Source: Bacteroidales bacterium (GTDB lineage Bacteria; Bacteroidota; Bacteroidia; Bacteroidales; WCHB1-69). Taken from it: DNA of 64,000 nt. Shown piece after piece: positions 1,886-39,053 of the stretch. How positions within the stretch are numbered: the first letter of the stretch is position 1; the number at the start of each line of letters is the position of its first letter. A program made the position numbers and the translations under genes. Location of the stretch: positions 11,490 through 75,489 of the forward strand of contig JAFVNW010000060.1 of the NCBI GenBank assembly GCA_017506175.1, given 5' to 3'. Below the pieces are notes generated by a model. That model was not told the DNA's origin, did no database searches, and worked only from the letters and a program-made list of their open reading frames with translations.

Positions 1886-2032
1886 ATGAGTAATGGAGAA
1901 AGAATTTTGGAGGGCATGAATGATTTCCGTAATTCACCAAAAATCGAGTGTAAAGATTATCCTGTTTGGGATGGTGACAGATGGGATGACTCTTGGTCGC
2001 ATGATAGCTGGCAGGATTCACACGGAAACTAA
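1886..2032 (+). CDS. Trp/Asp-rich small peptide, candidate RiPP precursor A (48 aa from ATG 1886; the ORF track extends it to TTG 1832)
   Basis: MSNGERILEGMNDFRNSPKIECKDYPVWDGDRWDDSWSHDSWQDSHGN. It shares an N-terminal NGERxLE motif and a VWxxDxW core with the ORF at 2219. It is on the same strand, directly after two rSAM/SPASM genes. Confidence 0.6.
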   Translation: MSNGERILEGMNDFRNSPKIECKDYPVWDGDRWDDSWSHDSWQDSHGN

Positions 2033-2040
2033 TTGACAAA

Positions 2041-2079
2041 AACAGAATATTTTTCTATTGAAGAATATTCTGTTTTTCC
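2041..2079 (+). terminator. rho-independent terminator-like hairpin after peptide A
   Basis: Perfect 11-bp stem AACAGAATATT (2041-2051) / AATATTCTGTT (2064-2074) with a 12-nt loop, running into TTTTT. Confidence 0.7.
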
Positions 2080-2218
2080 TTAGTACATGACAAAATTTGT
2101 TAAAGTCTGATAGCCAGCGGATTAGCTATAGACAAGAACGCAGGTATCGGTATTTCATAGTCGTTTCTGTCTCTGAGAAGGAACTCGGTGACGATGTCCA
2201 GACCGTAGCGGTAGTATT

Positions 2219-2437
2219 ATGAGTAAAACGAATGGCGAAAGGCAACTTGAATATTTACAAAATGAGGCTGACGTTTATGACGACGTTTGGTCGCGTGACG
2301 GTTGGGCTGAATGGGGTGATGAGATTAAAAATGAAGTTCTTGGAACATGGAATGATGATATAGGTGATTGGCCAATGAATTCATGGTCAAAAGGAAAATA
2401 CGATGATATTTATGATGTAAAAGGTGAAGGAGATTAA
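2219..2437 (+). CDS. Trp/Asp-rich small peptide, candidate RiPP precursor B (72 aa)
   Basis: MSKTNGERQLEYLQNEADVYDDVWSRDGWAEWGDE...: 6 Trp, 12 Asp, no Cys. The leader and first core motif are paralogous to peptide A, with synonymous nucleotide differences (GGA/GGC, AGA/AGG). Confidence 0.6.
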   Translation: MSKTNGERQLEYLQNEADVYDDVWSRDGWAEWGDEIKNEVLGTWNDDIGDWPMNSWSKGKYDDIYDVKGEGD

Positions 2438-7643: not shown

Positions 7644-8534
7644 ATGGAAAACAATTCATCAGAGATGCTGCATGAGGAGCAGCAAAAAAACGCTCAAGAT
7701 CAGATTCAACAGGACGCAGGAGCAGAACAGGAAAACCCGAACTCTTCTGAAGATCAAGCCCCTATGGAGGAAGGGGAGAAAGGAACTGCCTTAGGCAGCG
7801 CATTCAGGAAGTTTAGTGGCGCCACGCTGGGCATCGTCTCAGCACTGTTCTCCATCGGGGTTGTGATAAGTGTCCTGTGGGGGATTGTCTTGCTTTGCGA
7901 GACCGGTTACGACCGCTGGTTCGGAGAACTTTACGGTGAAAAAATCGGAAATGAGGGCCTCGTTTATGTATCTTGCGAAAAAGCCATTATGAAACAACGC
8001 CCCAACAAGAAAATCCTTACGGATATCACAAGCCTTGAGGAGCTCAACAACCAGACTGGTATCGTATGCCAGCACGGTAAAAAAGGCATCATTGATTTGA
8101 ACACCGCAAAGTTCTTGTTGCCGGCACGCTACAACGACATCTGGACCACCACTCGCGACACTATTATGGCCGCTACGGATGATACGGTTTACACGATTGC
8201 CCTATCGGGATGGACTGTTGTCAAGCATGAGCCGACCGCCAGCTTCTATCGTGCCATCCGTGCCATCTACGAGGATGATTACTATGATAGGTATGGCGCG
8301 GAGCTGCTAATCTACGAATACACGGACTACACTGGCCGTTGCGGACTGATGAGCAAGGAGTTCAAGAAACTGACCCCCGCAATCTACACAACCATTGACG
8401 CGGTATCTGGACGCAATGATGTTTTCCTTTGCCGTTTTGATGAATGTAATAAAGATGAAGAATATGACGTTAACAACTGCATTGGCGAATTGCGGAACAT
8501 TAAAGGGGAAAGGGTAGAATATGTGCAACATTAA
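7644..8534 (+). CDS. membrane-anchored protein with degenerate WG-repeat-like C-terminal domain
   Basis: Low-complexity N-terminus, one TM helix (LGIVSALFSIGVVISVLWGIVLLC), then repeats resembling WG/KWG repeats (GKKGIIDLNTAKFLLPARYNDIW; GRCGLMSKEFKKLTPAIYTTIDAV). Confidence 0.55.
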   Translation: MENNSSEMLHEEQQKNAQDQIQQDAGAEQENPNSSEDQAPMEEGEKGTALGSAFRKFSGATLGIVSALFSIGVVISVLWGIVLLCETGYDRWFGELYGEKIGNEGLVYVSCEKAIMKQRPNKKILTDITSLEELNNQTGIVCQHGKKGIIDLNTAKFLLPARYNDIWTTTRDTIMAATDDTVYTIALSGWTVVKHEPTASFYRAIRAIYEDDYYDRYGAELLIYEYTDYTGRCGLMSKEFKKLTPAIYTTIDAVSGRNDVFLCRFDECNKDEEYDVNNCIGELRNIKGERVEYVQH

Positions 8535-9042
8535 CAGAGAGCAAAAACTTGCCTACCTCCTCCGTCACGACAAACAGTACAACTTCGACATTCACGGTTG
8601 GCGTGAAGTGCATGACCTTGTGGAAAACCATGGCTACACTCAGGAGGAACTGGCTTCCATCGTAAAAAACAGTAACAAGCAGCGTTTCGAGTTCTCGGAC
8701 GACGGGCTACTCATCAGAGCACGGCAAGGCCACAGCATACAGGTTGATGTGGCACTGACTGAAGCCACTCCGCCCGAATACCTGTACCACGGAACTGTCG
8801 TGAGCAATGTTGCATCCATTATGGAAAAAGGGCTGCTTCCAATGAACCGCCTATATGTTCACCTGTCTGTTGACGAATCTACAGCTCTGAAAGTTGGAAG
8901 CCGAAGAAAAGGAGGAGCGGTCGTTTTGAAAGTCGCTGCACGGAGAATGTGGGAAGCTGGCCACCGTTTTTGGTTTTCACGAAACGGTGTTTGGCTTACA
9001 AAAACGGTTCCTGCGGATTATCTAATAATAGACGATAAGTAA
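8521..9042 (+). CDS. kptA: RNA 2'-phosphotransferase (KptA/Tpt1 family)
   Basis: LAYLLRHD ... HGW ... RFEF ... IRARQGHS ... YLYHGT ... LYVHLS motif series typical of Tpt1/KptA; 173 aa. It overlaps the upstream ORF by 14 nt. Confidence 0.85.
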   Translation: MCNINREQKLAYLLRHDKQYNFDIHGWREVHDLVENHGYTQEELASIVKNSNKQRFEFSDDGLLIRARQGHSIQVDVALTEATPPEYLYHGTVVSNVASIMEKGLLPMNRLYVHLSVDESTALKVGSRRKGGAVVLKVAARRMWEAGHRFWFSRNGVWLTKTVPADYLIIDDK

Positions 9043-28047: not shown

Positions 28048-28239
28048 ATTCGTTGGTTTATAGATGTTTTTTCCGCCTACTCTTTGCGCTTTTCGGCTTC
28101 CGCGAAATTATTGTTGATTTAAATTGTTGGTTTTCAATTGATTGTAATGTTTGGTTTTTCTTAAAAAACAAGTCGCAAATATACAAGATTTTCAAGGTAA
28201 AAAAACAAAAAAAATTTTTTTGATTTTTTATAAATTATG

Positions 28240-38627: not shown

Positions 38628-38782
38628 CCCGCGCCGACCCGCATCGGAGGTCGCATAAGTAGGTCCCTTTGAGGTGGCGGTTGTGCCATCTACGTCCCTG
38701 CTTTACCTGCCGCTTTCCAGTCGTGTTGATATTGTGTTAGTAAATAATTGGCTTTTCACAAAATTATTCGCCTTGAAATATA

Positions 38783-38790
38783 TATTTTTG
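38783..38790 (+). promoter_or_regulatory. Bacteroidota -7 promoter box (TATTTTTG) ahead of the riboswitch
   Basis: TAnnTTTG match immediately upstream of the riboswitch start. Confidence 0.5.
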
Positions 38791-38794
38791 CGGC

Positions 38795-38950
38795 GCTTTC
38801 GGTTTCGCAAGAATCAAAAGGGAACGCTGTGAAAATCAGTGGCTATACCCGTAGCTGTTAGTTCCATGATGCGCCTTTCCAATGTGTCACTGCCCTTTCA
38901 GGGCGGGAAGACGGAAAGTGCGGGGACAAGCCAGAAGACCTGCCAAAGCA
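38795..38950 (+). promoter_or_regulatory. cobalamin (B12) riboswitch
   Basis: AAAAGGGAACGCTGTGAAAATCAGTGGCTATACCCGTAGCTGT core, B12 box GTCACTGCCC...GGGCGGGAAGAC and 3' AAGCCAGAAGACCTGCC. These align element by element with the E. coli btuB leader as I recall it. Confidence 0.9.
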
Positions 38951-39053
38951 CATATTTTCGTTGCTTTCGGGAATAAGGGCGGACGAAGCGACTTAGGTCG
39001 TGTAAATGCTCCCCCAAGCGCCTTTGATGACAAACCATAACCAATAACCATTA

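Follow-up and report, generated by a model that had tools for sequence, protein, structure and literature searches.

Near the start of a 64,000-nt stretch of DNA from a Bacteroidales bacterium (GCA_017506175.1, contig JAFVNW010000060.1, 11,490-75,489, forward strand; hereafter the window), four genes follow one another on the + strand in the order rSAM1 (30-701), rSAM2 (714-1817), peptide A (1886-2032) and peptide B (2219-2437). The first two encode radical S-adenosylmethionine (SAM)/SPASM enzymes, and the other two are small open reading frames (ORFs), both present as the initial annotation of this DNA had described them. On the comparative evidence given below, peptide A is a genuine and conserved precursor from a Trp/Asp-rich family that has no name as yet and is always found beside an rSAM2-type enzyme. 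It is fairly probable that the whole locus is to be read as follows: A is the precursor of a peptide made on the ribosome and modified after translation (a RiPP), rSAM2 is its maturase, the modification consists of cyclophanes between Trp and a C-beta, B is decaying, and rSAM1 belongs to a separate system. Comparison loci and contigs are labelled L001-L120, and peptide homologues from protein searches carry labels of the form P00nn.

Peptide A, a 48-aa precursor (MSNGERILEGMNDFRNSPKIECKDYPVWDGDRWDDSWSHDSWQDSHGN), consists of a leader that begins MSNGERILEG and a core that ends in ECKDYPVWDGDRWDDSWSHDSWQDSHGN. A search of 5.8 billion proteins gave 13 clusters with 69-100% identity to A, all containing ECKDYPVWDxDRWxDSWSHDSWQDSH, and five further members (P0015, P0016, P0017, P0019 and P0021) came from an exhaustive profile search through 1.84 billion representatives. 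An A-like peptide stands beside an rSAM2 homologue (58-73% identity) in three Bacteroidales metagenome-assembled genomes (Rikenella, Paludibacteraceae and RUG12969). Searching by the enzyme was more productive than searching by the peptide: a metagenome scan with rSAM2 as the query returned 80 loci, and at 36-70% enzyme identity the neighbouring small ORF was still of the A type. About 30 distinct A homologues adjoin rSAM2 homologues that are 36-100% identical to rSAM2, their sources being herbivore and human gut metagenomes. The A-type family is widespread in Bacteroidales of the herbivore and human gut, and is probably present in Firmicutes as well. Distant examples include MMNGEEIILNL...SWSGDWSHDWSGDWAHDSWSNDSWQDSHGW, MSNGMKIIAEIL...DCDWNDDWNDDWNDDWNDDWNDY and MNETNGCRILETI...YHDSGWNDSWPDGWSDSHGG. 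The sequence AGGAGG precedes MSNG or MNG at the correct spacing in distant family members, which confirms the start codon and suggests that the hosts of these members are not Bacteroidales.

An alignment of 29 peptides shows NG-x-x-[ILV][ILVM] as a motif of the leader throughout the family and, at the C-terminus, a core of Trp, Asp, Ser and His that mostly ends in W-x-D-S-H/Y; this terminal block is the most conserved site, and its last W-x-D is nearly universal. A has a single Cys, located shortly before the first Trp in the sequence ECKDYPV, and this residue is not kept across the family. When a family profile built without A was run against the 1406 open segments of the window, it matched A with E = 2e-25 and nothing else. 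The ratio of nonsynonymous to synonymous substitution rates (dN/dS) of A over eight loci is 0.08-0.39 with a median of 0.17, many pairs being saturated at synonymous sites, and by this measure A is under purifying selection at the protein level. No Pfam or NCBIfam family matched A, B or eight distant family peptides, and the leader motif was present neither in Pfam/NCBIfam nor in the papers that were read.

The spacing of Trp and Asp was evaluated over 106 Trp residues in 26 family peptides. Asp occupies position +2 or +3 of 93 of these residues (88%); taken separately, it stands at +2 in 52%, at +3 in 42% and at -2 in 57%, in cores that are 21% Asp overall, and Asp, Asn or Glu stands at +2 in 66% family-wide. 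Two Trp residues are never three or fewer positions apart, and another Trp is found at +/-4 in 33%. Ser is frequent at W-1 (40%), W+1 (30%) and W+3 (36%). The core of A has four Trp (W28, W33, W37 and W42), so that repeated aromatic-X-X units follow a leader as they do in triceptide precursors. The initial annotation had attributed a W-x-(x)-D pattern to both peptides of the window; the pattern holds throughout the A family, whereas in B only three of six Trp have Asp at +2 or +3, with ~2.3 expected from composition.

The predicted maturase of A, rSAM2, is a 367-aa protein assigned from its Pfam Radical_SAM and SPASM domains and from its neighbourhood. Its CX3CX2C motif starts at residue 26, and the enzyme therefore has no N-terminal peptide-recognition (RRE) domain. 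This motif and the auxiliary-cluster cysteines of the SPASM region are both in place, making up eleven cluster cysteines (Cys26/30/33 and Cys253/261/276/318/321/327/331/344) that are invariant in 52 homologues. The Cys276-Asp277 pair is also invariant in the rSAM2 family and has a counterpart in the alignment with anSME, a Cys-Asp pair at the corresponding place in the SPASM region of that enzyme, in which Asp277 is the proposed catalytic base. Among curated models, rSAM2 scores 193.5 bits on that of anSME (TIGR03942; cut-off 349.45) and is matched over the full length by those of DynA (147 bits, cut-off 450), GrrM/OscB (140 bits, cut-off 310), YhhB (118 bits, cut-off 445) and AmcB (109 bits, cut-off 425); the scores for DarW (100 bits, cut-off 650), PapB (97 bits, cut-off 340), FxsB (94 bits, cut-off 370), DarE (69 bits, cut-off 650) and XyeB (62 bits, cut-off 450) are lower. 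Sequence matches in the PDB include anSME (E = 2e-31) and the triceptide synthase ChlB (E = 2e-20). An AlphaFold model of rSAM2 with a mean predicted local distance difference test (pLDDT) value of 92.5 gives template-modelling (TM) scores of 0.77-0.79 to anSME and 0.76-0.78 to ChlB (9GM3/9GMC), which are so nearly equal that the fold cannot tell the two apart. In public records, 176 relatives of rSAM2 are named merely "radical SAM protein". The enzyme falls in the SPASM group that holds the three-residue cyclophane synthases, and anSME is about equally close.

The formation of triceptide-like cyclophanes between Trp and a C-beta is the best reading of what rSAM2 may do to A. In the proposed mechanism, the NG-x-x-[ILV][ILVM] leader would be bound by rSAM2 itself, without a separate recognition domain, and SAM would be cleaved reductively by the enzyme. 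The radical would take the C-beta hydrogen of Asp, or of whichever residue is at Trp +2, that C-beta would be joined to the indole ring, and an electron would be passed to the auxiliary clusters, with a change of -2 Da per ring. At W28, W33, W37 and W42 this could place up to four small cyclophane rings on A and give a triceptide-like product. There are precedents for such linkages: OscB joins Trp C7 to the C-beta of an Asn or Asp residue, and in the case of YxdB it is Tyr C3 that is joined to the C-beta of Asp (PMC11002830); triceptides are defined through their aromatic-X-X motifs (PMC11499958, PMC12912966). The aromatic-X-X link suggested by the initial annotation gains from these precedents and from the adjoining SPASM enzyme of the cyclophane-synthase group, but strict aromatic-X-X spacing fits only some of the Trp residues.

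Several points weigh against the proposal of a cyclophane-forming rSAM2 and a decaying B. No NCBIfam model, including that of every cyclophane-synthase family, reaches its curated cut-off on rSAM2, for which anSME is both the best hidden Markov model (HMM) match and the best PDB sequence match. Neither a protease nor an exporter is conserved beside the module of rSAM2 and A in the loci examined. Asp stands at +2 of just about half of the Trp residues and at +3 of many others; in A itself, the first Trp has Asp at +1 and +3, and the third has it at +3. The spacing D-x-W fits as well as W-x-D, so that rings of another size or of the reverse direction are conceivable. In this lineage the 72 codons of B form an intact ORF, so that B may have some function. 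Finally, co-occurrence, selection, motifs and enzyme class are matters of observation, whereas leader binding, the site of the radical and the coupling are steps that we infer.

The rival reading that survives best is that rSAM2 performs some other chemistry on A-type peptides, such as conversion of Ser to formylglycine (in DSW or DSH), ether or C-N links like those of darobactin and dynobactin, or rings of four residues or of the D-x-W type; we hold this to be possible but doubtful. It draws on the position of anSME as the best HMM, PDB sequence and fold match of rSAM2 and on the alignment of the invariant Cys276-Asp277 with the anSME pair, as well as on the frequency of Ser around Trp. Asp at -2 is as enriched as at +2, and W-S-H in A is an aromatic-X-aromatic motif. 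However, there are members of the DWNDDWNDDWNDDWNDDWNDY type without Ser in the repeat, and Ser therefore cannot be a universal target. No sulfatase domain was detected among the genes called over 21 kb of L001, and no C/S-x-P-x-R motif was found nearby. The W-S-H of A and most of its close relatives is replaced by W-S-S in P0013, P0014, L007 and L009. Trp-to-C-beta cyclophanes stay the preferred reading of the chemistry.

Peptide B (MSKTNGERQLEY...VWSRDGWAEWGD...), a 72-aa ORF of doubtful coding status, appears to have arisen by duplication of an A-type gene, to have diverged and to be restricted to one lineage. The initial annotation had treated A and B as paralogues under protein-level selection, pointing to NGER codons that differ at synonymous positions only (AAT GGA GAA AGA in A, AAT GGC GAA AGG in B) and to the core openings VWDGDRW in A and VWSRDGW in B. 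These features are all present, and homology of B to A is likely from the sequences: the two have in common an NGERxLE leader and a run across the start codon, AGTATTATGAGTAA, which makes the descent of B from an A-type gene likely. That B is a partner comparable to A, however, is not well supported. Similarity in a BLASTP alignment of the two is weak, with 13 of 43 identities and E = 0.001 in a single comparison. A search for homologues of B in the 5.8 billion proteins found B itself only, and B is not present in other A-bearing loci examined. With composition correction, B scores 3.9 bits on the family profile, which is not significant; the uncorrected score is 23.0 bits, whereas shuffles of B average 7.9 +/- 3.4 (5 of 2000 shuffles reach 23.0), and the uncorrected match spans just the leader and VW..D.W.

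A syntenic sister lineage, L013, in which A is 85% identical, is informative about the fate of B. There the sequences of A, the 5' element and the terminator match at ~87%, while the spacer between A and B is unalignable, and the copy of B has TGG changed to TAG at the first Trp, followed by decay that includes indels. The B region is copied in L013, L014 and L015 at 83.7% identity, L013 being the sole copy read. Over the alignable part, dN/dS of B against L013 is 1.3 (23 codons) or 0.76 (41 codons), so that the selection claimed for both peptides is apparent for A but not for B. Lacking homologues, with a chance-level spacing of Trp and Asp, a stop codon in L013, these dN/dS values and occurrence in a single lineage, B behaves as expected of a gene that is hardly constrained, if at all. 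It looks like a decaying duplicate of an A-type gene and would be at most an optional second substrate. That B is instead a functional second precursor of rSAM2, two products being made from two paralogous peptides, is unlikely. Its 72 codons are intact, its leader (NGERQLEY) is a good one, its profile match beats 1995 of its 2000 shuffles, and five contigs carry it unchanged, while L099, a sixth, has two differences. One of these is synonymous, but the other changes a Trp to Cys, and B has no 5' hairpin and is positioned downstream of the terminator of A, in addition to the stop, the indels and the substitution ratios already described. An alternative-frame ORF lies inside B (window 2232-2363, MAKGNLNIYKMRLTF...); it is open in L013 too, where the gene caller chose it, and its dN/dS is 0.39 over 40 codons, which are too few sites to judge.

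The radical SAM/SPASM maturase rSAM1 (30-701, +) is of a FibroRumin-like kind, and the window holds only its C-terminal half, since the gene is cut by the window start and begins upstream of it. This fragment scores 220 bits on TIGR04136, and the full-length protein (447 aa, from L001) matches the same model end to end with 345 bits against a cut-off of 400, the next family scoring 133. A third small gene, MISPKVTDYKKIQGKISEFVKVHMSSTCSCSCNCTCGCNCNAPILQNRFVNPARRII, lies at L001 8457-8630, ~660-830 bases upstream of the window start; its Cys-rich product (MISPKVTDYKK...STCSCSCNCTCGCNCN...) matches TIGR04135 with E = 2.7e-5 and 24 bits against a cut-off of 45. Thus rSAM1 probably serves a FibroRumin-type Cys-rich precursor directly upstream and not A or B, FibroRumin being the closest family although below threshold. 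Trp/Asp modules often adjoin a second radical SAM enzyme of the Cys-peptide type (L009, L023 and L016), which in L023 also has its own Cys-rich peptide. Conversely, the pair of rSAM2 and A occurs without rSAM1, or any second enzyme, in L007, L008 and L017.

Because rSAM1 has its own Cys-rich precursor and because rSAM2 with A is found alone elsewhere, the locus consists of two independent modules, one of the Cys peptide and rSAM1 and the other of rSAM2 and A. The scheme of two enzymes for two peptides in the initial annotation has to be given up in favour of three precursor genes and two independent modules, with one precursor probably dead. It is accordingly very unlikely that rSAM1 and rSAM2 both act on A and B to carry out two chemistries on the same peptides. 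The two enzymes are adjacent on one strand and the second enzymes beside other modules could be read in the same sense, but each precursor just described stands next to its own enzyme, A and rSAM2 do without a second enzyme in three loci, and the sole Cys of A is unconserved. That the small ORFs are chance or non-coding is hardly credible: gene callers omit A in most contigs and neither peptide matches Pfam or NCBIfam, but for A this is already refuted by the conservation of frame, motifs and dN/dS across saturated synonymous divergence and by a Shine-Dalgarno sequence before MSNG in distant members, although it is possible for B.

Peptide A is flanked by expression signals of its own. Upstream, a 5' leader element (1845-1875, +) is made up of AACCGA (1845-1850) and a stem of 4 bp (GCTC at 1854-1857, GAGC at 1872-1875) with a loop that holds the invariant ATGGGATATAAC (1859-1870); across Bacteroidales islands and phages, the invariant part of the loop is AUGGGAUAUAAC. 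The element ends 10 nt before the start codon of A, and the distance from the ATG in its loop to the start codon is 25-28 nt across instances. In 16 instances the stem is paired in 93.8% of cells, against 20-39% in slid controls, and compensatory changes occur in all four stem pairs; none of 500 shuffles attains the score observed. An Rfam search of the region gave no match. Downstream, an intrinsic terminator (2038-2080, +) consists of an 18-bp hairpin followed by a U tract, with a folding energy of -19.5 kcal/mol (z = -6.5; none of 200 shuffles folds as well), and it is kept in L013 with changes on both arms. Given the conserved 5' hairpin, the MSNG start and the strong terminator straight after the stop codon, A is apparently a short expression unit by itself.

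Gene callers frequently place the start at the loop ATG, which would add an N-terminal extension, MGYNxAxxxM. This extension was rejected, as no synonymous variation is seen in ATG GGA TAT AAC. At some loci the loop ATG shares the frame of the peptide, but it is out of frame in L008, L020, L049, L063 and before the Cys peptide of L013; together with the lack of synonymous variation, this indicates a nucleotide-level element. Besides A, the element is found ahead of the Cys peptide, further small Cys-rich ORFs and Tyr/Asp peptides, and in phage contigs it precedes ordinary genes of 250-300 aa, so that its use as a marker specific to RiPP precursors was rejected and it is to be regarded as a general 5' leader. 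Instances include L001 8415-8450; L008 5590-5625 and 7143-7178; L009 5777-5812; L016 5986-6021 and 11737-11700 (-); L019 1482-1517; L049 700-735 and 974-1009; L063 2742-2777; and the phage contigs L100, L101, L120 and others. A Bacteroidetes-type promoter look-alike is often found just upstream, and AACCGA may therefore be the 5' end of the transcript. Candidate roles of the element are a nut-like site, a stabilizer of mRNA and a translation element. Two of the small Cys-rich ORFs that follow it, at L008 5630-5746 and L016 ~11695-11579 (-), encode METARCKWCG...GGYCCPTCYQAG... and MAECKQCGKEI...GGYCCPACAAAG..., which look like zinc-ribbon mini-proteins.

Related clades of the enzyme are paired with other peptides. 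Homologues of rSAM2 at 43% identity (L029-L032 and L043) are preceded by two Cys/Asp-rich peptides instead of a Trp/Asp peptide, for example ...EDCDCDTCFCHHCYCYDCY... and ...NCDCDCQCDCYGGGCDW... at L029 1276-1437 and 1513-1638, with repeats of the CDCDCQCDC type. Since this sister clade pairs with Cys/Asp repeats, Asp is the element common to both types of peptide, a hint at Asp that favours the proposed chemistry. In a bolder view, the enzyme clade would be defined by forming a radical on an Asp side-chain carbon and coupling it to the acceptor at hand, indole in Trp/Asp repeats and thiol in the Cys/Asp repeats of the sister clade; A-type products would carry a ladder of Trp-Asp rings of mixed three- and four-residue or D-x-W type, a topology undescribed for triceptides, and, separately, Bacteroidales and their phages would have in the 5' leader a cis-acting RNA element that is new; as a whole, this view is speculative and improbable. 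Still more distant rSAM2 homologues (26-30% identity) adjoin Tyr/Asp-rich peptides with repeats of the GDYYDGDYND type (L052 2075-2230, L055 2301-2537, L063 2783-2968 and L049 1015-1173), which may be of the published YxD type; the homologue in L055 scores 278 bits on the DynA model. The match to the rSAM2 homologue in L049 (1633 nt for 341 residues) encloses two peptide genes that each follow a hairpin (715-1173), so that a split or an interruption of this enzyme gene is possible.

Other arrangements were noted around the modules. In L007 (5974-7332) an rSAM2 homologue and an A-like peptide share one stop-free frame, either as a natural fusion or through an assembly error. In L039 (1000-5482) the pair of rSAM2 and peptide lies between a full glmS-like gene (GATase and SIS) and a SIS-only ORF, as if inserted. 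An RNA 2'-phosphotransferase of the KptA/Tpt1 family, FtsZ/tubulin-like proteins and a metallophosphatase recur as neighbours (window 8521-9042; L016 6981-10344; L008 3544-4800; L023 72-824), and the repeated presence of the same kinds of neighbours suggests a variable island. Elsewhere the window has a cobalamin riboswitch at 38782-38961 (+; 102 bits) and a DUF805b RNA motif at 28074-28106 (-; 39 bits).

If rSAM2 makes several Trp-Asp rings, the A family would be an unnamed family of acidic, multi-ring peptides in gut bacteria, made by a member of an enzyme group some of whose members make the antibiotics darobactin and dynobactin. The locus offers a clear pair of precursor and enzyme to express and a leader motif for mining, and the Trp/Asp and Cys/Asp substrates of sister enzymes provide a natural comparison for how these enzymes choose acceptors. 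Literature searches with core strings, FibroRumin, YxdB and Bacteroidales cyclophanes found no description of the A family. Thousands of putative triceptide pathways have been catalogued (PMC11499958), and those networks may already contain the A family without a name.

The system of rSAM2 and the A family is best filed, as a presumed member, among the cyclophane-type RiPPs of radical SAM enzymes. Among the closest parallels are the triceptides and the enzymes making their three-residue cyclophanes (3-CyFEs; XyeB/XncB, GrrM/OscB, FxsB/MscB, YhhB, YxdB, ChlB and AmcB), which, like rSAM2, are SPASM enzymes of ~360 aa without a separate recognition domain. Their known substrates include Trp-x-Asp (OscB) and Tyr-x-Asp (YxdB), and the fold of ChlB is about as near to that of rSAM2 as the fold of anSME is. 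In contrast, rSAM2 lies under all cut-offs (GrrM/OscB, with 140 of 310 bits, is the best 3-CyFE), the A family has no curated model, and half of the Trp residues have their Asp at +3 instead of +2. The anSME enzymes (PDB 4K36-4K39) resemble rSAM2 in length, cysteine spacing and the Cys276-Asp277 pair and are its best match in sequence and, hardly ahead of ChlB, in fold, but rSAM2 is below their 349-bit cut-off, has no nearby sulfatase, and is partnered by a small Trp/Asp peptide without a sulfatase motif. The daropeptides darobactin and dynobactin (DarE and DynA) have Trp-rich cores, to which may be added the full-length match of rSAM2 to DynA and the W-S-H triad of A; here the score is far under the cut-off of 450, A-type cores are longer, acidic and repetitive, and W-S-H gives way to W-S-S in several members. 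Ranthipeptides of the PapB type contain thioethers from Cys to the C-beta of Asp, formed through a radical on the Asp side-chain carbon. A sister clade of rSAM2 is paired with Cys/Asp repeat peptides; A has Trp where those have Cys, and rSAM2 reaches only 97 bits on the PapB model. The FibroRumin system, a TIGR04136 maturase with a TIGR04135 Cys-rich peptide, is mirrored by rSAM1 and the Cys-rich peptide upstream, both of which fall below the curated cut-offs; it is a module of its own and gives no account of A, B or rSAM2.

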